Source: a virus. Taken from it: 64,000 nucleotides of DNA. Position 1 is the first letter of the stretch. Each line of letters starts with the position of its first letter. The position numbers were made by a program, and so were the translations under genes. Shown in pieces: positions 31,878 through 63,320 of this stretch. The stretch is from the IMG/VR virus record IMGVR_UViG_3300044620_001243. One strand, written 5' to 3'. The notes beneath the pieces were generated by a model. It had not been told where the DNA came from. It saw only the letters and a program-made list of their open reading frames with translations, and ran no database searches.

Positions 31878-32075
31878 TTGGGTAAAAATGGAAGTTATAG
31901 TATTTATAACCCCAATGAAGTAGATGAAAGTTGTAGGGTTGCTTTTGACTTGATACAGGTTATTAGACATGAATTTTGGAAAAACGAACCAAACAGAAGT
32001 AGCATAACTGTCGATTCATCAGTACATTTGAGAACAAAGGAATCAGGTAAAATTAAATGTAAAATAGATGTCTAA
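31878..32075 (+). CDS. hypothetical protein (TTG start, or read-through extension of 31146-31817)
   Basis: Frame is open from 31818; no ATG start available. Confidence 0.3.
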   Translation: MGKNGSYSIYNPNEVDESCRVAFDLIQVIRHEFWKNEPNRSSITVDSSVHLRTKESGKIKCKIDV

Positions 32076-33363
32076 ATACAAACCCATAGGGATTACACCC
32101 AAAGAAAAAGCAGACCAGTTGTTAGAATCTGTTATGTTTAGTCTAAATAAACAATTTGACCCAAACACAGGTGAATATCAACCAATCCCAACCAACCCGC
32201 ATTATAAAGAATGCGCATTAGCAATTGTAAACGAAATCTTTGAGTTTATTAAAAAAGATGATTTAGATTCCGAAACGGCGTATTGGGCAAATCATCCTAT
32301 TTCTAATTTTTGGGTTGAAGTTGAACGTGAAATTAAAAAACAAATGAATTTGATTCAAATTTTAGAGAATTATTTTCAAAAAGGTTGGTTGATTAAACAA
32401 ACTCACCCAACTTTACCTCTGACAATTTGGAATTATTCCCAAACAACCCAATACGAGGGTAGGTGGGATGAAATAACCCTCATGTGTAGAGGTTTGGTTA
32501 CAGATGATGATGGAAATATTGTTGCCAGACCTTTCAAGAAGTTTTTCAATTTAGAAGAGGGAAAACACACACCAACCTCAGAATTCGAAGTATATGAAAA
32601 GATGGATGGTTCTTTGGGTATTTTCTTTTATTATCAGGAGCAACCCGTTTTTGCATCCAGAGGTTCTTTCACTTCCGACCAAGCCATCAAAGGAAGAACT
32701 CTTTTAGATAAGTATAATTGGCAAGGTGGAACTTACCCTGGCTACACTTACCTATTTGAGATTCTTTACCCGGAAAATCGGATAGTAGTAAATTACGGTG
32801 ATTTAGAAGAACTGGTTGTTTTGGGTGTGCTCAATACCCAAACTGGAGAAGAGTGTGATTTTTCAGAAATGAAAAACGAAGGATTCGTTCTAGTTAAAAA
32901 ATACGATGGAGTTAAAGACTATACCAAATTAAAGAGTATGATTTTTAACAATCAAGAAGGGTTTGTTGTAAAGTTTTCAAACGGAAATAGGGTAAAAATC
33001 AAAGGAGAAGAATACTTGCGTCTTCATAAGATTATGACTGAAGTTTCGACTAAATCTGTTTGGGAGATTTTATCCAATGGTGATAATATGGAAGAGATAC
33101 TCAGAGATGTTCCTGATGAATTTTTTGATAAGGTCAAGGAATATGAAACAGAACTTGTTTCTAAATTTGATGATATAAAGAATGAATACACTTGGATTTA
33201 TAAAGTTTTAGAAAGAAACGAGGAAATTTCAGAAAATAGAGCTATCTTTGCCCAATACGCTAAAAGATACAAACACCCATCCATTTTATTTGGTCTATTG
33301 GACGGTAAAAATATAGACCCTATGATTTGGAAAATAATACAACCCGAATATAAAAAACTATGA
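32068..33363 (+). CDS. rnlA: RNA ligase, T4 RnlA (Rnl1) family, with about 92-aa N-terminal extension
   Basis: CRGLV...IVARPFKKFFN, adenylylation motif I YEKMDGSL (T4: KEDGSL), SRGSFTSDQA, FEILYPENRIVVNY, EGFVVKF..G.RVKIKGEEYLRLH all parallel T4 Rnl1 as recalled. Confidence 0.85.
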   Translation: MSKYKPIGITPKEKADQLLESVMFSLNKQFDPNTGEYQPIPTNPHYKECALAIVNEIFEFIKKDDLDSETAYWANHPISNFWVEVEREIKKQMNLIQILENYFQKGWLIKQTHPTLPLTIWNYSQTTQYEGRWDEITLMCRGLVTDDDGNIVARPFKKFFNLEEGKHTPTSEFEVYEKMDGSLGIFFYYQEQPVFASRGSFTSDQAIKGRTLLDKYNWQGGTYPGYTYLFEILYPENRIVVNYGDLEELVVLGVLNTQTGEECDFSEMKNEGFVLVKKYDGVKDYTKLKSMIFNNQEGFVVKFSNGNRVKIKGEEYLRLHKIMTEVSTKSVWEILSNGDNMEEILRDVPDEFFDKVKEYETELVSKFDDIKNEYTWIYKVLERNEEISENRAIFAQYAKRYKHPSILFGLLDGKNIDPMIWKIIQPEYKKL

Positions 33364-41369: not shown

Positions 41370-41401
41370 TTTGGTTTTTTGAATTTTATTGCGTATATTT
41401 G
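41370..41401 (+). promoter_or_regulatory. Bacteroidota-type promoter
   Basis: TTTG, 20 nt, TATATTTG; drives the lipoprotein ORF and first shell RNA. Confidence 0.5.
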
Positions 41402-41586: not shown

Positions 41587-41725
41587 AGTCAGATGGCGAA
41601 ATGTAGCCGCTATTTGGGTAAAACAGTTTAACACGAGACGCGAACCTCACACAAAGCCTGATAATAACCAAATGAAAGTGCGAAGTACAGTAACACTTAT
41701 ACGGGTTCGACTCCCGTTCTGACTG
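41587..41725 (+). ncRNA. tRNA-Leu-like shell RNA 1 (divergent copy)
   Basis: AGTCAGA-TG-GCGAAATGTAGCCGC ... ACGGG-TTCGACT-CCCGT-TCTGACT-G; 90-nt insert with ATTTGG/CCAAAT stem around 51 nt, plus AAGTG/CACTT arm. Confidence 0.55.
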
Positions 41726-44439: not shown

Positions 44440-44604
44440 ATGCAACCAAAAGAATCAAAAACAAATACCCATTTTCAATTAAGTTTGATAAAATCTCTTT
44501 TAAGGATATTAGGATGTATTTATCTATTCTTTGGGTGTACAAGTATGTTTGTAATTATTTTCATATTTGCAGAAATTCTTGGAATTTTAGAAGAAATTTT
44601 GTAG
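44440..44604 (+). CDS. small membrane protein
   Basis: 54 aa from ATG 44440; C-terminal TM helices. Confidence 0.35.
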   Translation: MQPKESKTNTHFQLSLIKSLLRILGCIYLFFGCTSMFVIIFIFAEILGILEEIL

Positions 44605-44628
44605 TTTGAATTTTTTTTCGTATATTTG
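44598..44628 (+). promoter_or_regulatory. Bacteroidota-type promoter at the head of the RNA array
   Basis: TTTG, 19 nt, TATATTTG; tRNA-Met starts at 44654. Confidence 0.55.
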
Positions 44629-44653
44629 TATTCTGAATATGAAAATAAACAAT

Positions 44654-44727
44654 AGCGGGGTGGTGGCAGATGGTAGCCCGCCAGGCTCATAACCTGGAGG
44701 TCGTAGGTTCGAGTCCTACCCCCGCAA
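44654..44727 (+). tRNA. tRNA-Met (CAU), initiator-like
   Basis: Hand-folded cloverleaf colinear with E. coli tRNA-fMet (AGCGGGG..CCAGG-CTCATAA-CCTGG-AGGTC-GTAGG-TTCGAGT-CCTAC-CCCCGCA-A); A1/A72 mismatch; one bulged U in the D stem; starts about 25 nt after the -7 box at 44621-44628. Confidence 0.75.
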
Positions 44728-44791
44728 CCGTATAGTTTTTGTTCTTTGACATCTTGGGAATTAAAAGTAAAAGTCGAGAGACTTAAAAATT

Positions 44792-44901
44792 AGTCAGGTG
44801 GCGGAATTGGTAGACGCAAGTGAGAATAGTAATTGCGCTGATGTAGCGGCAGATGCAGTAAGTTATTATTCATACAGGTTCGAGTCCTGTCCTGACTACC
44901 A
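44792..44901 (+). ncRNA. tRNA-Leu-like shell RNA 2
   Basis: Consensus ends (AGTCAGGTGGCGGAATTGGTAGACGC ... ACAGGTTCGAGTCCTGTCCTGACTACCA); 56-nt insert forms a rod GAATAGTAA/TTATTATTC + TTGC/GCAG + GCTG/CGGC; no 5-7-5 anticodon arm. Confidence 0.6.
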
Positions 44902-45008
44902 AAGAAACAAGTAAAACGCAAACGCACAGTCCCTTGATGCATCAGGTGAGGCGCACACTGTATACTGGATGACCTCTGTTTCTTTTTTAATCAGTCAGGT
45001 GGCGGAAT
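44871..45008 (+). repeat. 138-bp exact duplication, copy 1 (T arm + acceptor + spacer + next 5' half)
   Basis: Identical by eye to 45339-45476. Confidence 0.8.
44902..44992 (+). ncRNA. structured 91-nt spacer RNA candidate (copy 1 of 2)
   Basis: AAAGAAACA (from 44901, sharing the terminal A of the preceding CCA)/TGTTTCTTT 9-bp closing stem, internal ACAGT/ACTGT and GAGG/CCTC pairings, palindrome TGATGCATCA; identical copy at 45370-45460. Confidence 0.3.
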
Positions 45009-45101
45009 TGGATAGACGCATTGAGGAATCTAAACTTGGTAGCATTTGTTAGATTTAATAGTAATCCTCCTTCCTTACAGGTTCGACTCCTGTCCTGACT
45101 A
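44993..45101 (+). ncRNA. tRNA-Leu-like shell RNA 3
   Basis: Consensus ends; 57-nt insert with GAGGA/TCCTC and ATCTAA/TTAGAT stems. Confidence 0.6.
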
Positions 45102-45267
45102 CGACAGTTAGCAGATAATACTTGGTAGTTCTTGTAACGTCTGACTATGCGTGAGGTGGTTTTATAACTTTCCACCAGCTGGTCCAAAACTAAAAGTTAA
45201 TACAGGTTTAATAACGGGGTGAAGGAAAGTCTAACTAACAAGTACTTCACTACCTACTGTAAAAATT

Positions 45268-45369
45268 AGTCAGGTGACGAAATTGGTAGACGTGCCACGA
45301 ATAAAACTAAGTGGTGGAGAAACAGCTTTCAGGCACTCCATACAGGTTCGAGTCCTGTCCTGACTACCA
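45268..45369 (+). ncRNA. tRNA-Leu-like shell RNA 4
   Basis: Ends AGTCAGGTGACGAAATTGGTAGACGT ... CCTGACTACCA; 48-nt insert with CCAC/GTGG and GGAG/CTCC hairpins. Confidence 0.6.
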
Positions 45370-45476
45370 AAGAAACAAGTAAAACGCAAACGCACAGTCC
45401 CTTGATGCATCAGGTGAGGCGCACACTGTATACTGGATGACCTCTGTTTCTTTTTTAATCAGTCAGGTGGCGGAAT
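45339..45476 (+). repeat. 138-bp exact duplication, copy 2
   Basis: Identical by eye to 44871-45008; offset 468 bp. Confidence 0.8.
45370..45460 (+). ncRNA. structured 91-nt spacer RNA candidate (copy 2 of 2)
   Basis: Identical to 44902-44992. Confidence 0.3.
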
Positions 45477-45558
45477 GGTAGACGCACTGGACAGGCGATG
45501 CATTTAAAACAGAAATAAGCCCAGTCGGTACTTACAGGTTCGAATCCTGTCCTGACTA
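45461..45558 (+). ncRNA. tRNA-Leu-like shell RNA 5
   Basis: Consensus ends; 48-nt insert with ACTGG/CCAGT + GGC/GCC around a 22-nt loop. Confidence 0.6.
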
Positions 45559-45926
45559 CAAATCTTAGGAGTAATTAACCTAAGACTGAGAGGTTCGAAA
45601 CTCTCGATTGGCTATGGTGTAATGGGCACAGAGAAACGGAGTACGAAAGGGGTTACGGGAATTTTCCCGCAAACATCAGAAACGGGACTCAGGATTATGG
45701 TTCGAATCCATATTAGTCAACAAGCCGTCTTTTTTTCTTGTCCGCCGTGGACGTGGATTGTTGAGACGTAAAAGTAACAATCGATTGATTAGAGAACGGT
45801 AGGATACAGGTTCACTAGACGAAGGTAGAAGTTTTTTTTTGATAGATGGGTTTGAGTTCTTTATAACAACAAACCAACTATAATTCAGTAGGGACAAATG
45901 GGAGCGGCTTACTCCAGTCCCGAAAT

Positions 45927-46085
45927 AGTCAGGTGGCGGAATTGGTAGACGCTATGAAATCATGTTTTAAGATTGAACGGGTAGGCAGACGTAACATATA
46001 GGTAAAAGAGTGTTATCGCCGAATACACTTATAAGGGTCCTATGAAAAAACTTCAATCATACAGGTTCAAGTCCTGTCCTGACTA
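45927..46085 (+). ncRNA. tRNA-Leu-like shell RNA 6 (largest insert)
   Basis: Consensus ends (T loop TTCAAGT); 108-nt insert with GATTGAA/TTCAATC closing stem and nested helices. Confidence 0.55.
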
Positions 46086-46328
46086 CACGTTCCGAAACAG
46101 ACAACGGATAGTTCCACTATGAACGATGAGAAACAGGGTGATGTCCTGTATTAGTTATCGCCTCCCGAATGCGGTCGGGATAGGTTGACCACCTAAACAT
46201 CAGCAATGTGAACGGTCTATTTCTAACTCACCTACGTTTGTAAGACAACATAGAAGTGACGAGACGGGAAACTCGTCGTGAGGACATCCAAGACACCTGT
46301 AAGTTGGATAAATTAGGGTGTTATTTTT

Positions 46329-46451
46329 AGTCAGGTGTGGGTAAAAATGCGCTAACTGGAAACCCACTGAAAGCGAAAGCAAAGTCGAGGTCTAAATGCG
46401 CACTATGGCCGAGGTAATGGCGAGATACAGGTTCAAGTCCTGTCCTGACTA
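46329..46451 (+). ncRNA. tRNA-Leu-like shell RNA 7 (D arm replaced)
   Basis: AGTCAGG-TG, then GTGGGT/ACCCAC hairpin instead of the D arm, GC-GAAA-GC hairpin, consensus T arm and CCTGACT-A. Confidence 0.5.
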
Positions 46452-46596
46452 CAAAGACAATGGTTTTCCCCATTCAACGGATGTCGACAATCCAGAATGG
46501 AATCGGAATTCAGCACCCTCAGCCGAGGCGCCTCGTAAAACTACGATTAAGCTGTTAAGATTGGAGCGAGACGGGTACTCCATCATTGTCTTATTT

Positions 46597-46668
46597 GGTC
46601 GGTTCATCTAGAGGTTAGGATACAAGATTTTCATTCTTGTCACATGGGTTCGATTCCCATACCGACTA
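46597..46668 (+). tRNA. tRNA-Glu (UUC)
   Basis: GGTCGGT/ACCGACT acceptor, D arm ATCT-AGAGGTTA-GGAT, anticodon arm CAAGA-TTTTCAT-TCTTG, T arm ATGGG-TTCGATT-CCCAT, A73. Confidence 0.85.
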
Positions 46669-46843
46669 CCTTGGAGGTATAGGGGTAAACCCTTGAGGCG
46701 AAGTACAAGCCATAGTCACTGAACTTAAACTGACCTCCAACCAAATTAGAAGTGTCGCAATACGCGTTTCAATCTAATTGATAGACGTATCAATGAAGAT
46801 GTTCGAGGGTGAAAATCCCAAGCTTCTAATCCTCCATTCTTAG

Positions 46844-46938
46844 TGTTATGTGGTTAAAACACGTTAACTCTTACATCGCCTGATTAGCGCTAATCCGAAT
46901 GTAAGACGAGTAAGTTGGTTCGAATCCAACAGAATGGA
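46844..46938 (+). ncRNA. tRNA-like RNA of a second lineage with rod-like anticodon arm
   Basis: Acceptor CCATTCT/AGAATGG (7 bp), D arm GTGT-TATGTGGTTAAA-ACAC, T arm GTTGG-TTCGAAT-CCAAC, A73; 50-nt rod TTACAT/ATGTAA + palindrome GATTAGCGCTAATC. Confidence 0.55.
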
Positions 46939-47216
46939 CAATGAGTAAGAGATACTCAGAGTCTTTGGTCTAAGACTTAAACAATAGACTCGCAGAATGT
47001 CTACGGCGTGAGTGGGACATCATGGGAACAAAGAAGAGTCACACACCTTCTCCCAGTAGTGTTGACAGGTTTTTATGTGGTAAGACACTAATGAAAAAGA
47101 CTCGTTCTATGGGGTACTTATCTGGAGTATCAAACAAGTGTGAGTGATATGGTTCTCGAACAGACAGAGAAACCCGTTAAAATCTACCCGTCTGGAATCT
47201 CAGGATGGGGAAACAT

Positions 47217-47319
47217 AGTCAGGTGGCGGAGTGGGCTAACGCTAACTTGGAAGAGTCTGAGGAGTGGTAACCAAGTACCTATACTCTGATGACCGCAGGT
47301 TCGAATCCTGTCCTGACTA
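47217..47319 (+). ncRNA. tRNA-Leu-like shell RNA 8
   Basis: AGTCAGG-TG-GCGGAGTGGGCTAACGC ... GCAGG-TTCGAAT-CCTGT-CCTGACT-A; 52-nt insert with ACTTGG/CCAAGT stem; loop AGAGT complementary to downstream ACTCT. Confidence 0.6.
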
Positions 47320-47337
47320 CAAAAATAAATTAAAATT

Positions 47338-47598
47338 ATGTTTATAGAAAGATTTTTTAACCCCTATGTGTCATCTCACGAAAGGGTATTATATGAGAAT
47401 AAAGAAGCAATTGAACATTGTTTGAAATATCATACATGGATTAGACATTATTCATTTGAAGGTGATGAATATATCAAAAATGTTAATGGTAAATTAGTTT
47501 GGAATGATGGTAGTAAAGTTGATAAAAGAAAATTACCTAAAAAAGGAAAAGGATGGGGCAGATATTCAAGTGAACTTTATAATTTGTGTTCTTTTTAA
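47338..47598 (+). CDS. hypothetical protein (cassette between tRNA-like elements)
   Basis: 86 aa ORF starting 18 nt after element 47217-47319 and ending 7 nt before element 47606. Confidence 0.5.
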   Translation: MFIERFFNPYVSSHERVLYENKEAIEHCLKYHTWIRHYSFEGDEYIKNVNGKLVWNDGSKVDKRKLPKKGKGWGRYSSELYNLCSF

Positions 47599-47605
47599 AT
47601 TAAAT

Positions 47606-47751
47606 AGTCAGGTGGCGGAATTGGTTAGACGCTGTAAAAGTAAGATATGGGAATTGTGCACTCGGTAAACCTACGCACAAGGCTTAGATAGTTGTGCAAC
47701 AGCGGAAAGTCTTACAAAACTATCTTACAGGTTCGAATCCTGTCCTGACTG
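47606..47751 (+). ncRNA. tRNA-Leu-like shell RNA 9
   Basis: Consensus ends (G73); 94-nt insert with AAGATA/TATCTT and TTGTGC/GCACAA stems. Confidence 0.55.
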
Positions 47752-47764
47752 CAAAATTAAAGAT

Positions 47765-47908
47765 ATGTTTAGAACATTAAATTATATTTGGAAATTGTTT
47801 TGGAAAAGACCTAGTAGAAGAGTATTTTTTATATTTTTTAGAATGCTAAAAACGGAAATTAAGTGTTTAATGTTGACTGGATACTCAACAGATGAATTAC
47901 TAAATTAG
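47765..47908 (+). CDS. hypothetical small protein (cassette between tRNA-like elements)
   Basis: 47-codon ORF found by eye; its TAG stop overlaps the first 2 nt of element 47907. Confidence 0.3.
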   Translation: MFRTLNYIWKLFWKRPSRRVFFIFFRMLKTEIKCLMLTGYSTDELLN

Positions 47909-48033
47909 TCAGGTGGCGGAATTGGTAGACGCACGATTTATTGTTTAACGATGTGGCTCAATGTCCTAATGGATGAGAGAAAATAAACAGAGAAATATAC
48001 CACATACAGGTTCGAATCCTGTCCTGACTACCA
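47907..48033 (+). ncRNA. tRNA-Leu-like shell RNA 10
   Basis: Consensus ends with encoded CCA; 73-nt insert with crossing complementarities TTTATT/AATAAA and ATGTGG/CCACAT. Confidence 0.6.
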
Positions 48034-48085
48034 AGTTAACCCACTAAGACTAGAAACGGGTGACACCTCGGAAAGACGAGGACAT

Positions 48086-48170
48086 AGTCAGGTGGCGGAA
48101 TGGATAGACGCGGCCCTATCAGGGGTAGAGGCGAAAGAAACTCATACAGGTTCGAATCCTGTCCTGACTA
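48086..48170 (+). ncRNA. tRNA-Leu-like shell RNA 11 (tRNA-sized, non-canonical anticodon loop)
   Basis: 85 nt; best arm CCCTA-TCAGGGG-TAGAG has a C/A mismatch and C at position 33; looks like a damaged Leu(CAG) loop. Confidence 0.5.
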
Positions 48171-48278
48171 CACAGTGTTGGCTTCAAGGACCTATTAGGG
48201 AAGTACACTTAAATAAAACAAGAACGGGGAAAACACCGAATCTGCAGATAACGGCGAAGTACCAACGAAAGGTGAAAC

Positions 48279-48352
48279 GACCTCATAGCTTAATTGGTAA
48301 AGCACCTGGCTTTTAACCAGGGGAGTCCAGAGTTCGAGTCTCGGTGGGGTCA
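48279..48352 (+). tRNA. tRNA-Lys (UUU)
   Basis: GACCTCA/TGGGGTC acceptor, D arm GCTT-AATTGGTA-AAGC, anticodon arm CCTGG-CTTTTAA-CCAGG, T loop TTCGAGT, A73. Confidence 0.8.
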
Positions 48353-48517
48353 CAAAGGTTGATTGGGGAATGATGGTGACAAAGACTTGAGAGTTTATGC
48401 CGGTCGTTACCATCGGAGTTGGGAGGTATAAACCTAAGCAATGCCAATCGTAAAAGGAGTTGTCCACTCGACCATCTTCTCCTTTCCTTTTTTTTAAAAA
48501 AATTCTTAAAGACACAT

Positions 48518-48549
48518 TTTGGTTTTATCATTTTACTTTTGTATATTTT
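48518..48549 (+). promoter_or_regulatory. Bacteroidota-type promoter
   Basis: TTTG, 20 nt, TATATTTT. Confidence 0.4.
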
Positions 48550-48553
48550 ACAT

Positions 48554-48820
48554 ATGAAAAACATAATAAACATAAGAAAAGTTGTATCTCAACTAACTCA
48601 AGAATATCTCTTTTTTAAAGAGGCATTTGAATCAGACGTGGATTCTGAAACTATGGAAAACACCAAAACGATTATGGATGATTTTGAAGATTTCGTTGAT
48701 GCATATTTGGATGAAAACGATGTTGATGATACGATAACAGACGATGAGATTTTAGATGATTGGATTGAAAAAAATGAGAGGTCAATGTATAAAAAGTTGA
48801 ATCGAAACGATATCAATTAA
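48554..48820 (+). CDS. acidic protein
   Basis: 88 aa from ATG 48554 downstream of promoter 48518-48549; D/E-rich. Confidence 0.45.
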   Translation: MKNIINIRKVVSQLTQEYLFFKEAFESDVDSETMENTKTIMDDFEDFVDAYLDENDVDDTITDDEILDDWIEKNERSMYKKLNRNDIN

Positions 48821-48870
48821 TCAATGGAAAAGAAGTGACCAAGTTTACTTTAATAAAATTTTTGAATTTT

Positions 48871-48902
48871 TTTGGAATTCTCATTTCTTTTAGTTATATT
48901 TG
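48871..48902 (+). promoter_or_regulatory. Bacteroidota-type promoter
   Basis: TTTG, 20 nt, TATATTTG; about 100-nt leader to ATG 49002. Confidence 0.45.
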
Positions 48903-61015: not shown

Positions 61016-61222
61016 ATGAAAAACAAAGTTTGGAACAAAACAGTTATTGCAACTGAAGAACAAAACGTAAGCATTTATCCGACAGATGAGTTTGATGGCA
61101 TTATAGTTGAAACAAAAGAGTTGGACGATAAAACATTAAATGGTAAGTTGTATCTTAACAAAGATGAAATGGAACTGTTGATTCAGAAAATGGTGGAAAT
61201 GATGAATTACGTAAAAAGTTAA
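61016..61222 (+). CDS. hypothetical protein (cassette after a decayed tRNA-like 3' half)
   Basis: 68 aa; leader AACAAAACAAATGAAA shared with other cassettes. Confidence 0.45.
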   Translation: MKNKVWNKTVIATEEQNVSIYPTDEFDGIIVETKELDDKTLNGKLYLNKDEMELLIQKMVEMMNYVKS

Positions 61223-61237
61223 TCGAATCCTGACTGC
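61223..61237 (+). other. truncated 3' half of a shell element
   Basis: TCGAATCCTGACTGC equals the consensus T-loop/acceptor with an internal 5-nt deletion; followed by the shared leader. Confidence 0.45.
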
Positions 61238-61264
61238 AAATCAAATCAACTAAAAACAAAACAA

Positions 61265-61405
61265 ATGAAAAATAAGTTAAAAACAATTTGGCATGATTTT
61301 TGGACTGACCCCCTATACTACATTGTAATTATGTCGTATATTGGTTTGCTTTTAATTATGTTAATAGTTAGTGTGGCTTGGTTTATCCAACCTTTAATAA
61401 AATAA
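61265..61405 (+). CDS. hypothetical small membrane protein (cassette)
   Basis: 46-codon ORF found by eye; same leader; stop 6 nt before the tRNA-Leu at 61412. Confidence 0.35.
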   Translation: MKNKLKTIWHDFWTDPLYYIVIMSYIGLLLIMLIVSVAWFIQPLIK

Positions 61406-61411
61406 CAAAAC

Positions 61412-61501
61412 AGTCAGGTGGTGGAATTGGTTAGACCGTCCCCTCCCTTAAGTGGAAGGGGGAGACCGAAAGGTATACAGGTTCGAATCCTGTCCTGACT
61501 A
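61412..61501 (+). tRNA. tRNA-Leu (UAA), type II; the most intact member of the AGTCAGG shell family
   Basis: Family acceptor and T arms; anticodon arm CCTCC-CTTAAGT-GGAAG (one C/A mismatch; U33, UAA, G37); variable arm ACC-GAAA-GGT. Confidence 0.5.
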
Positions 61502-61518
61502 CTAAAAATTAAAGAATT

Positions 61519-61680
61519 ATGAAAATAAAAGTACACTTATTAAGTCAATCTAAACCGATTGAATATGAGGATGTGAAAAACGCATACACAAAAAGCGGTT
61601 TGTATTGTGTCTATCTAAAAAACAATCAAGTACACAAATACCCTTTGTGTAATGTATTTAGAATTGAAGAAGATTATTAA
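61519..61680 (+). CDS. hypothetical small protein (cassette)
   Basis: 53-codon ORF found by eye between elements 61412-61501 and 61686-61768. Confidence 0.35.
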   Translation: MKIKVHLLSQSKPIEYEDVKNAYTKSGLYCVYLKNNQVHKYPLCNVFRIEEDY

Positions 61681-61685
61681 AACAT

Positions 61686-61768
61686 AGTCAGGTGGCGAAA
61701 TTGGATAGACGCTAGGGAAACCTTCCCGAGAATGAAAGTTCATATAGGTTCGAGTCCTGTCCTGACAA
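61686..61768 (+). ncRNA. tRNA-Leu-like shell RNA 13 (tRNA-sized)
   Basis: 83 nt; A1/A72 mismatch (CCTGACA); centre folds as GGGAA-ACC-TTCCC, not a 7-nt anticodon loop. Confidence 0.5.
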
Positions 61769-61784
61769 CTAAAAATTAAAGAAT

Positions 61785-61967
61785 ATGGAATGGGTTGAAA
61801 TTAAAAATGGAAAACCAAAAGATGGTAGTTGGGTACTAATTCAAAGTTCTTTGAAGAACGTACCGAAATATGAGGTTTGCTATTATGAAAATGATGAATG
61901 GTACATACCTTCGTATAATGATGTATGTGAAGAGAAACATATTATTAAATGGTCGTACATTGAATAA
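61785..61967 (+). CDS. hypothetical protein (cassette)
   Basis: 60 aa ORF between elements 61686 and 61974. Confidence 0.45.
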   Translation: MEWVEIKNGKPKDGSWVLIQSSLKNVPKYEVCYYENDEWYIPSYNDVCEEKHIIKWSYIE

Positions 61968-61973
61968 TCAAAC

Positions 61974-62096
61974 AGTCAGGTGGCGGAATTGGTAGACGTA
62001 TAGAGTAGGGAGTAGCACTCCATTTATGGTAAGGCAAGCAAATAAGACCTAACCCTCTAAGGTAGCACCATACAGGTTCGAATCCTGTCCTGACTA
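61974..62096 (+). ncRNA. tRNA-Leu-like shell RNA 14
   Basis: Consensus ends; 72-nt insert with TAGAG/CTCTA closing stem and GGAG-TAGCA-CTCC hairpin. Confidence 0.6.
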
Positions 62097-62115
62097 CAAA
62101 CAAACAAAAAAAAAT

Positions 62116-62322
62116 ATGAGTCAATTTATCAACACAAATCACGCAAACGAAGCGGCAAGAGAAGCCTTTCAGGGTTATAGGAAAGACACAGAAAGAATCA
62201 AACAAATCAGACAGATGTTACAGAATGGTGAATCTGTTAGCAATGAAGATATTCTTTGGTTGTGTCAAAGAGCTCAATCAGGCATACTACAAGAAGAATC
62301 AAGTTGGTATGACCACGGATAA
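62116..62322 (+). CDS. hypothetical protein (cassette)
   Basis: 68 aa ORF between elements 61974 and 62329. Confidence 0.45.
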   Translation: MSQFINTNHANEAAREAFQGYRKDTERIKQIRQMLQNGESVSNEDILWLCQRAQSGILQEESSWYDHG

Positions 62323-62328
62323 AAATAT

Positions 62329-62435
62329 AGTCAGGTGGCGGAATTGGTAGACGCAATAAGGCATGGAAACATGCGCATCATGACGGATTGGTGATATTAG
62401 CCAAAGTTATACAGGTTCGAATCCTGTCCTGACTA
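62329..62435 (+). ncRNA. tRNA-Leu-like shell RNA 15
   Basis: Consensus ends; 56-nt insert with ATAA/TTAT closing stem, GCATG-GAAA-CATGC (GNRA tetraloop) and TTGG/CCAA hairpins. Confidence 0.6.
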
Positions 62436-62454
62436 CAATAAAAAAACAAAACAA

Positions 62455-62943
62455 ATGAAACTAAATCAAAACTCACTCTCGGCAAAACTCTATCGTTGGT
62501 TCTATAAAACCGACACAATGCCAACCAACCTATGTCCTTACTTTTGGAAACTGGTCACTGCGGTGATTCTTTCACCTTTGCTTGCAATTCACACCCTACC
62601 CTATGAAATCATCAACTACAAACGTCAGCGTTGGGATACATACAGTGATATGCTCGGAATATCGCTTGTTTGTTGGTGCCTTATCGCTGTTGTTATTTGC
62701 ATGATTTCATCATTGGGTCTTTTCTTTTACATCCCTGATAAGGGTTCATCACTTTGGACAATGATGTCAATCGGTCTTATTTGTTGGGGTACCCTTATCC
62801 TAGTTGGCATTACTTGGGCTATTACTAAAACAGTAGTATACTTAAAATCAAAGAAGAGTGATAATGAAAAGACAGACAACATCATCGTTGAAATGGTGAA
62901 AGCAAAGTATCACAAATACTGCCCTAAAATTGATTGGAAGTAA
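62455..62943 (+). CDS. membrane protein (cassette)
   Basis: 162 aa with about 4 TM helices, between elements 62329 and 62951. Confidence 0.55.
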   Translation: MKLNQNSLSAKLYRWFYKTDTMPTNLCPYFWKLVTAVILSPLLAIHTLPYEIINYKRQRWDTYSDMLGISLVCWCLIAVVICMISSLGLFFYIPDKGSSLWTMMSIGLICWGTLILVGITWAITKTVVYLKSKKSDNEKTDNIIVEMVKAKYHKYCPKIDWK

Positions 62944-62950
62944 AACAAAT

Positions 62951-63028
62951 AGTCAGGTGGCGGAATGGTAACGCAGCTCGCGGTGTACACAAAGGGGTGA
63001 ATTGCAGGTTCGAATCCTGTCCTGACTA
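62951..63028 (+). ncRNA. tRNA-Leu-like shell RNA 16 (shortest)
   Basis: 78 nt; 29-nt centre tested at every register for a 5-7-5 arm, none found. Confidence 0.5.
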
Positions 63029-63047
63029 CAATAAAAAAACAAAACAA

Positions 63048-63320
63048 ATGAAAAGACTATTTTTATTTCTTCTCAGAAGATACAGCAACACTGAATCACA
63101 ACGAATGGAAATTTACCGTGAGTTGTGGGAAAAAACCAAAGAGGAATATTGGGCACAAACCGCATTTGGAAATGTCTACAATATGAATATTGAGGTTCTA
63201 ATGGCAAATCCATTTTTCGAAAGTAGAGTTAAGTTAGGAGAGGATGAACATTTAAGAATGTTAAAAGCTGGACTATCAGATTCATTTGACGATAGTGTTG
63301 AATATATCCTGAATGGTTGA
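63048..63320 (+). CDS. hypothetical protein (cassette)
   Basis: 90 aa from ATG 63048; the track ORF start at 62934 reads through the tRNA-like element and is rejected. Confidence 0.45.
   Translation: MKRLFLFLLRRYSNTESQRMEIYRELWEKTKEEYWAQTAFGNVYNMNIEVLMANPFFESRVKLGEDEHLRMLKAGLSDSFDDSVEYILNG

Follow-up and report, generated by a model that had tools for sequence, protein, structure and literature searches.

The stretch of viral DNA considered here, 64,000 nucleotides (nt) of IMG/VR virus record IMGVR_UViG_3300044620_001243 (hereafter the window), contains an exact 138-bp repeat, and each of its two copies carries, between halves of tRNA-like genes, an 85-nt element that belongs to a family of structured RNAs. 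Compensatory changes among the members show a conserved fold, which consists of a closing stem (P1), a 3-bp helix, a stem P2, and a stem P3 with a palindromic loop, together with two long blocks that are conserved but unpaired. We favor, with some confidence, the reading that the repeat represents two copies of one module that is transcribed within a polycistron, released by tRNA processing, and spread by recombination between the tRNA-like genes.

The tRNA-like genes have acceptor, D, and T arms, while their anticodon and variable arms are replaced by a 30-110-nt insert that differs from gene to gene and folds into unrelated hairpins; we call the genes shells and the inserts cassettes. An earlier note on this DNA, made by eye, had reported an exact 138-bp duplication with an offset of 468 bp between four different cassettes. 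A repeat search and direct reading bear this out: the copies at 44871-45008 and 45339-45476 are 138 nt each, 100% identical, and 468 nt apart from start to start, and all four cassettes around them are unrelated. The left edge of identity is CATACAGGTTCGAGTCC, 3 nt ahead of the T stem in shells 1 and 3, and the right edge is ...AGTCAGGTGGCGGAAT, inside the D loops of shells 2 and 4. Immediately beyond these edges the two copies have different bases. Because the other non-shell repeats within 42-48 kb reach at most 36 nt at 86% identity, 138 exact bases are far beyond chance. About 47 of these bases (31 + 16) are shell halves conserved in all 16 shells of the window, so the informative part of the repeat is the 91-94 nt between them (a 94-nt inter-shell stretch, that is, CCA plus 91 nt). 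P1 takes in the final base of the upstream CCA as its first, and the following shell starts 7 nt past P1.

Homologues of this spacer, which the earlier note had proposed to look for together with covariation, were found in number, and so was the covariation described below. The 37-nt core of the spacer is exact in 7 IMG/VR contigs, in which the whole 85-nt element (AAAGAAACA...TGTTTCTTT) is identical and the flanking shells hold other cassettes. Three 16-mer scans and nhmmer retrieved diverged copies in the loci L162, L177, L191, L193, L197, and L064 (L numbers label the retrieved viral and metagenomic loci). The gapped pattern GTAAAACRCAAAC-N20-50-ACTGGATGAC then matched 15 viral and 48 metagenome loci, which together represent 43 distinct sequences. 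The same pattern has zero matches in one genome per species of the 185,579 bacterial and archaeal species in GTDB, and when two motif classes were compared by BLAST with 50,697 GenBank phage records, only chance fragments came up; the family is thus restricted to viral and metagenomic contigs. With a broader covariance model (R2), neither the window nor 138 other loci selected for their shells yielded additional copies. One of the scan blocks, ACTGGATGAC, also occurs in a plant-virus exonuclease-resistant RNA construct, where it is part of an ordinary helix; we judged this match to be coincidental.

The family appears to be uncatalogued. Rfam 15 (4227 covariance models) has no match to positions 44899-44988 at gathering thresholds or at E up to 5, and none at the motif positions of 14 class II-IV loci at E up to 1; across the window and 14 homologous loci, gathering and permissive thresholds returned tRNA matches only. 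Full-text searches for the conserved blocks found no relevant paper, and literature searches on tRNA-like arrays and structured phage RNAs gave no relevant match. The family may be among the 10,006 unnamed candidates of PMC10690425.

All classes of the family have in common P1, a 5' block GUAAAAC(G/A)CAAAC (block A), and a 3' block ACUGGAUGAC with or without CUC (block B), and between these a variable apical domain and the 3-bp helix, which pairs the last C of the 5' block and two more bases with a triplet farther 3'. We assessed the pairing first in an alignment of the 14 class I sequences (A2), which is independent of any structure because class I sequences line up nearly without gaps (the exception is a single 1-nt deletion, in L230 and L247). 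In this alignment, pairing holds in 96.1% of the cells, and both sides have changed in 15 of 20 pairs; none of 500 shuffles reaches the observed values, and slid partners pair at 36-56%. A covariance model (R1) built from these sequences aligned 62 matches, 42 of them distinct (A3), in which 93.4% of the cells are paired and compensatory changes are seen in each of the 17 nested pairs, including double changes in 9 of 9 pairs of P1. P2 has double changes in 5 of 5 pairs, with 100% pairing. The 3-bp helix takes the forms CGC/GCG, CCC/GGG, CGU/ACG, CUU/GAG, and CCU/GGG. It pairs in 122 of 129 cells, a value that none of 2000 shuffles reaches with the positions fixed relative to the conserved blocks, and RNAalifold independently recovered the same helix from a mixed alignment of classes I and II, with nine G-C to C-G exchanges. 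Because it crosses P2, the helix is a pseudoknot in classes I and II; classes III and IV are without P2, and there it is nested. Elsewhere in the window, matches to the complement of block A are no more than chance would give. Nothing supported a likeness to CRISPR repeats or to an anti-Shine-Dalgarno mimic.

Part of the structure that the earlier note had described survives this analysis. Its structured spacer, its 9-bp closing stem (our P1), and its ACAGT/ACTGT pairing (our P2) are all upheld by compensatory changes. Its GAGG/CCTC pairing fares otherwise: RNAalifold does pick it on class I, but there it is invariant, it is broken in L197, the CTC is missing in at least 10 members, and G53 belongs instead to the covarying pseudoknot with C25-C27. 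As a separate observation, the motif apex in L221, L234, L258, L243, L239, and L229, which are loci of classes III-long and IV, repeatedly shows a hairpin whose loop is UUCGCAA (GGUUCGCAACC and variants); this hairpin appears again in neighboring noncoding sequence, for example downstream of the motif in L226.

The perfect palindrome TGATGCATCA noted earlier is present at 44935-44944, but it is the palindromic property of the loop and not a fixed sequence that the family keeps. A perfect palindrome with zero spacer forms the P3 apex of classes I, II, and III-short, in varying sequences (AUGCAU, UAGCUA, CUAGCUAG, UAUUGCAAUA, UGUUGCAACA, GUCAUGAC, UGUACA, UCUAGA, UGAUAUCA, and UAGCGCUA) that have seven different central tetramers. 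A self-complementary loop brings a hairpin no gain, which suggests pairing between two molecules or copies, and the P3 loop would therefore point to self-association of the RNA as a dimer. The dimerization initiation site of human immunodeficiency virus type 1 (HIV-1) is a 9-nt loop with a central 6-nt self-complementary sequence and purine flanks. The element likewise has a loop with a self-complementary hexamer of this kissing-loop type, and several class I loops follow the scheme RR-hexamer-A (AG-AUGCAU-A, AA-AUGCAU-A, and AA-UAGCUA-A in L191, L218, L240, and L250). The biology is unrelated, however, and the loop of the window itself reads UG-AUGCAU-C.

The surroundings of the 43 instances vary. 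tRNA or tRNA-like genes abut 20 of them, on both sides in 16. In 19, including both copies in the window, P1 starts within 0-4 nt of an upstream discriminator or CCA, and the other 24 have no such proximity to a tRNA end. In the dense arrays of canonical tRNAs in L221, L234, L258, and L243, the motif fills exactly one spacer and abuts a tRNA on both sides; arrays of about 10-17 tRNAs carry one motif copy each. The remaining instances occupy other intergenic sites, some after a promoter-like site and some 50-120 nt before unrelated small open reading frames (ORFs). The ORFs downstream of the non-tRNA instances encode unrelated small phage proteins, with no riboswitch-like gene association. Only one of the 138 other shell-selected loci, L064, has the motif. 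Given this count and the varied contexts, we regard the motif as an autonomous module, at times situated in arrays of shells, that is neither a part of the shell nor a general signal for tRNA processing.

Comparison with related phages shows how such a module could have been copied. Identical or near-identical spacers lie between other cassettes in L122, L125, L127, L123, L126, L128, L162, and L177, and in L124 the spacer lies between a different kind of tRNA-like gene. Cassette 4, downstream of the spacer in the window, is upstream of it in L123, and L122, L125, and L127 have one motif copy followed by the segment that is found after shell 4 in the window. Related phages thus have these spacers and cassettes in other combinations and orders, with blocks permuted in L123, L127, and L010. 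We counted the endpoints of homology blocks of at least 120 nt between the window island and these phages; 33 of 46 fall in shell halves, compared with the 20% expected from the share of the island that shell halves occupy (p = 3e-14). These results agree with two proposals of the earlier note, namely, that the conserved ends and the spacer move as a unit apart from the cassettes, as the same spacer is found between different cassettes elsewhere, and that recombination or gene conversion acts across the tRNA halves, where the endpoints lie. Because the block endpoints fall in the shell halves, the unit consists of a 3' half, a spacer, and a 5' half, which is the make-up of the 138-bp repeat. 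A plain tandem duplication would copy the cassettes too, so gene conversion or unequal recombination within the shells fits better, and by one of these, with crossovers inside the shells, the second copy most likely arose. The shell halves (at least 31 nt and 16 nt) would have served as homology arms for copying the second module, and the same process would shuffle spacers and cassettes among related freshwater Bacteroidota phages. Since orthologous copies diverge by 1-16%, perfect identity points to either a very recent event or an assembly error.

A Bacteroidetes-type promoter-like site heads the noncoding island in which the repeat sits (Table 1). The next such site on the + strand is at 48871-48902, and none is found within 44629-48870. 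The consensus, TTTG-N17-21-TAnnTTTG, occurs at 15 sites in the window versus 5.5 expected (11 of the 15 on the + strand), an excess that is consistent with a Bacteroidota host. As these two are the sole promoter-like sites around the island, transcription must run through both copies, and from this context both would be parts of one noncoding polycistron of ∼3.8 kb. Each copy would be set free as an RNA of about 85-95 nt when the flanking tRNA-like structures are processed: the downstream shell would be cut at its 5' end by RNase P, and RNase Z, or else a 3' trimming activity, would work on the end of the upstream one. The released RNA may act on its own, possibly, and here we speculate, as a homodimer through the self-complementary P3 loop. 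Our best guess is therefore that the element is a stable small RNA cut from a tRNA-like polycistron and possibly dimeric. A bolder version, in which the element is the founding example of a new functional class of phage RNA that forms a symmetric dimer via the P3 loop and either works as a new self-cleaving ribozyme on tRNA-array transcripts, which it would trim, or self-assembles and binds a host factor, is a long shot. If true, the shells would be a natural "tRNA-punctuated" means by which a whole library of small RNAs is expressed and shuffled.

Several points weigh against our reading. Blocks A and B appear invariant partly by construction, since the scans required them, and only L191, L193, and L197 were found without requiring both blocks. 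The alignment of 42 sequences was fitted to the model and is therefore corroboration only. The single-sequence fold is no more stable than that of shuffled sequences (z = -0.23; -0.23 and -0.27 for the two strands); the fold check that the earlier note had proposed is thus unremarkable, although covariation upholds the structure, and RNAfold alone would wrongly refute it. The helices contain 11 G-U and 9 A-C combinations, which do not decide the strand, so the strand assignment rests on the constant co-orientation with flanking tRNAs. Classes III-long and IV are without the palindromic loop and have a different loop instead. We infer dimerization from sequence alone, and release by RNase P and RNase Z from position only. 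Finally, two copies occur only in the window among ∼60 contigs, within the DNA fetched, and 138 bp is near the read or k-mer length at which short-read assemblies go wrong.

The element might instead be a self-cleaving ribozyme of a new class, with putative catalysis at or near its own 5' end that would mature the 3' end of the upstream tRNA or tRNA-like RNA, a role that theta ribozymes have in gut phages. In favor of this idea, which we think possible but unlikely, are the start of P1 0-4 nt after a discriminator or CCA in 19 of 43 instances, a compact pseudoknotted fold with ∼20 conserved unpaired nucleotides, and the restriction of the family to phages. There is also a precedent in theta ribozymes, which are similar to the ribozyme of hepatitis delta virus (HDV), come from uncultivated phages, and are found no more than 5 nt away from the ends of phage tRNAs (Kienbeck et al. 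2024, PMC10879173). Our element is, like them, a small pseudoknotted phage RNA a few nucleotides from a tRNA 3' end. It does not have the HDV-like or theta arrangement (a nested double pseudoknot in which the 5'-terminal strand, P1, has an internal partner, P2 closing, and a catalytic C in J4/2); its topology differs in that the 5' and 3' ends pair together as P1, no Rfam HDV model matches it, it occurs once per array, and many copies are located away from tRNAs. No other known ribozyme model in Rfam matches either. For the type II hammerhead (CUGANGA and GAAA, a UH site, and three helices), block B has CUGGAUGA, with one extra G, the 5' block has GUAAAAC, the order of the helices is a misfit, and the Rfam hammerhead models do not match the element. 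Since arrays of 10-17 tRNAs hold a single copy, the element is not a general processing device, which also counts against a ribozyme, and 23 of the 43 instances have no adjacent tRNA.

Somewhat less probable than a ribozyme is a cis-acting leader or insulator with a role in transcription or decay, that is, a processive antitermination RNA, an exonuclease block, or a ligand-sensing leader. Antitermination would be useful in a long and highly structured island, the orientation of the motif always matches that of its neighbors, the motif of L197 is directly downstream of a Bacteroidetes-type promoter, and in L218, L230, L231, L239, and L247 the motif lies 50-120 nt upstream of small phage ORFs. 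The downstream genes, however, have no common function, and we see no conserved expression platform and no conserved U tract. Within tRNA arrays the motif is internal rather than first, and in L250 and L251 the promoter-like site comes after it.

We also considered that the second copy is an assembly artefact, in which the shared 138 bp led to the chaining of two strain variants of one locus or of a wrongly resolved repeat. Besides the copy number and length given above, the perfect identity of the copies speaks for this, as homologues elsewhere are 84-99% identical to the window over this stretch. An artefact is nonetheless improbable in our view. The shells joined at each of the four junctions are complete and plausible and differ in their cassettes, the intervening 330 bp are unique and include a 165-nt module that occurs independently in L005, where its homologue follows a shell with another cassette, and the arrays of related phages are demonstrably rearranged by like exchange.

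The two remaining alternatives have very little to recommend them. The terminator-like character that the earlier note had seen in the T run after the closing stem, as of an intrinsic terminator or simple processing hairpin, does not hold: the window does have P1 and then UUUUUU (at 44983-44988), and P1 closes the minimum free energy fold, but P1 is A/U-rich (7 A-U of 9 pairs) and encloses 66 nt instead of being a short G+C-rich hairpin with a 3-8-nt loop and a conserved U tract, the T run is lost in many homologues (L191, L220, L225, L239, and L240), a terminator scan of the region finds none at the element, and additional tRNA-like genes follow downstream without a new promoter before 48871. 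A role as DNA, for example as a protein-binding palindrome, a miniature transposon, or a recombination site, is just as remote; it would accord with the perfect palindrome, the ends that are 9-bp inverted repeats, the 100% identical copies within unrelated flanks, and a wobble count that leaves the strand undecided, but the inverted ends and the palindrome vary freely yet stay complementary, which fits base pairing and not recognition by a protein, the terminal repeats covary as P1 arms with no flanking target-site duplication, in contrast to a miniature inverted-repeat transposable element, and the asymmetric conserved blocks are always co-oriented with the neighboring tRNAs.

Our reading of a small RNA released from a tRNA-like polycistron has counterparts among known systems. 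The tRNA cluster of phage T4 encodes the stable species 1 and 2 RNAs, which are co-transcribed and co-processed with the tRNAs. These are likewise non-tRNA small RNAs inside a phage tRNA polycistron, with release by tRNA-processing enzymes as we propose for the element; the likeness is one of setting, and the hosts differ, as the present family comes from Bacteroidota-type freshwater phages. In engineered polycistronic tRNA-guide-RNA arrays and tRNA scaffolds, RNase P and RNase Z free the RNAs between tRNA structures. There, as proposed here, tRNA structures punctuate the transcript, but those arrays are synthetic. The shells may themselves be a natural tRNA scaffold for small RNAs. In T4-type phages, promoter-early-stem-loop (PeSL) cassettes reportedly mediate modular shuffling (Arbiol, Comeau and Krisch, in 2010). 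The island resembles them in that short conserved repeats between variable modules are the recombination sites, blocks end in repeated conserved sequence, and modules are duplicated and reordered. It differs in that the repeat, in place of a promoter with a hairpin, is a tRNA-like gene interrupted by an insert that varies, and in that the shuffled modules include noncoding RNAs. GOLLD and ROOL RNAs are often found near tRNAs. Cryo-electron microscopy reportedly shows these RNAs as multimers (bioRxiv 10.1101/2024.12.08.627333), and they are orphan structured phage RNAs that self-assemble, as the P3 palindrome suggests for the present element; they are 400-800 nt long compared with 85 nt here, the present element has no Rfam match, and its multimerization is putative.

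The duplication itself is ordinary repeat-mediated recombination. What gives it significance is that it marks an RNA family absent from Rfam 15 with strong covariation, a pseudoknot, conserved unpaired blocks, a self-complementary loop, a restriction to uncultivated phages, and many members in tRNA arrays, a profile that resembles the one preceding the discovery of new ribozymes and of ligand- or protein-binding RNAs. It is also direct evidence for the near-identical tRNA-like shells as recombination joints, with which phages would be able to duplicate and reorder small-RNA modules, which bears on the evolution of phage noncoding RNA islands and on the role of unannotated tRNA-like genes in freshwater Bacteroidota phages.

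Table 1. Features of the repeat region, in positions of the window
Feature	Position	Strand	Remarks
Bacteroidetes-type promoter-like site (TTTG-N-TAnnTTTG)	44598-44628	+	heads the noncoding RNA island
tRNA-Leu-like shell 1 (cassette 1)	44792-44898	+	acceptor, D, and T arms and A73; CCA at 44899-44901
Repeat copy 1	44871-45008	+	last 28 nt of shell 1, 94-nt inter-shell stretch, first 16 nt of shell 2
Structured RNA motif, copy 1	44901-44985	+	85 nt; covariance-model match of 116 bits, pair counts, RNAalifold
P1, 9-bp closing stem AAAGAAACA/TGTTTCTTT	44901-44909 / 44977-44985	+	
Conserved block A, GUAAAACGCAAAC	44911-44923	+	
Pseudoknot helix	44923-44925 / 44951-44953	+	
P2, ACAGT/ACTGT	44926-44930 / 44957-44961	+	
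P3, 3 bp	44932-44934 / 44944-44946	+	
P3 loop, 9 nt, UGAUGCAUC	44935-44943	+	
Conserved block B, ACUGGAUGAC	44964-44973	+	
CUC internal loop	44974-44976	+	
tRNA-like shell 2 (cassette 2)	44993-45101	+	constrained fold agrees
Unique spacer module between shells 2 and 3	45102-45267	+	165 nt, outside the repeat; 82% identical homologue in L005
tRNA-like shell 3 (cassette 3)	45268-45366	+	D-arm variant GACGAAAT...GACGTG
Repeat copy 2	45339-45476	+	repeat search, 100% identity
Structured RNA motif, copy 2	45369-45453	+	identical to copy 1, subcoordinates +468; model match at 45367-45456, 116 bits
tRNA-like shell 4 (cassette 4)	45461-45558	+	

The window is a phage segment of ∼30% G+C in which practically every long ORF is on the + strand, and the repeat sits in a G+C-richer noncoding island at ∼44.6-48.4 kb that contains three ordinary tRNAs (Met, Glu, and Lys) and ten shells. 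The 16 shells of the window are located at 41587-41725 (one), 44792-48170 (ten), and 61412-63028 (five). They share the acceptor stem AGTCAGG/CCTGACT, a tRNA-Leu-type D arm, the T arm ACAGG-TTCGAAT-CCTGT, and discriminator A73. Tested as tRNAs (RF00005), they have the acceptor stem, D arm, T arm, and discriminator, with which constrained folds agree, and they lack a readable anticodon as well as the 5-bp stem and 7-nt loop of an anticodon arm. The Rfam tRNA model matches the shells at 45461, 47217, 47907, 48086, 62329, and 62951 with 37-47 bits, and compensatory changes in the acceptor and T stems are present in the shell at 41587 and in the L124 shells. The copies in IMG/VR are diverse (186 of 203 distinct) and 68-309 nt in length. 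Of the 186 distinct shells, ARAGORN calls just 40, and the anticodons that it assigns are scattered and in many cases undefined. Because the anticodon arm is replaced and ARAGORN calls so few, we regard the shells as tRNA-like rather than as tRNAs; the names that ARAGORN gives to a few of them, tRNA-Pro(agg), Leu(taa), and Gly(acc), appear to be miscalls. We rejected a permuted-tRNA reading (3' half, X, 5' half), as the first half in an array is a 5' half and the last is a 3' half, and shells that stand alone show the normal order of halves. The exact 3' 24-mer of the shell is found in more than 120 viral contigs and, in GTDB genomes, on contigs of metagenome-assembled genomes only, mostly Bacteroidota. 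A full-text search for the shell sequence returned nothing relevant.

Some further observations concern the rest of the window. The inter-shell modules at 45558-45933 and 46427-46988, which are 87-98% identical in L010, L126, and L127 and hold T-arm-like hairpins (GAGAGGTTCGAAACTCTC and ATGGTTCGAATCCAT), are probably further tRNA-like or structured RNAs without an Rfam match. In a second island at 61400-63100, as well as at 47319-47600 and 47751-47900, shells alternate with small ORFs; at 61400-63100, 12-20 A-rich bases and an ATG come after each shell, which gives the impression that the shells punctuate or separate small genes. A lone fragment resembling a shell 3' end (CGAATCCTGACTGCAAATC) at 61218-61240 has no matching 5' half and may be a recombination remnant. 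A BLAST search of the island and two motif classes against the same GenBank phage records found only tRNA-Met, one small ORF of LR756502.1 (a 642-kb uncultured huge phage), and chance partial matches. The shared ORF, at 47339-47597 between two shells, is 75% identical in DNA to a stretch of LR756502.1, whose neighborhood of that ORF has no shells and no tRNAs. A further promoter-like site of the Bacteroidetes-type consensus lies at 41370-41401. The genes of the window include a helicase, a thymidylate synthase, an endolysin-like peptidase, and an RNA ligase; the ORF for the last, at 32068-33363, matches the T4 RnlA-type family (phrog_562, E = 4e-71) and hints at tRNA repair in a phage with a large island of tRNA-like RNAs.

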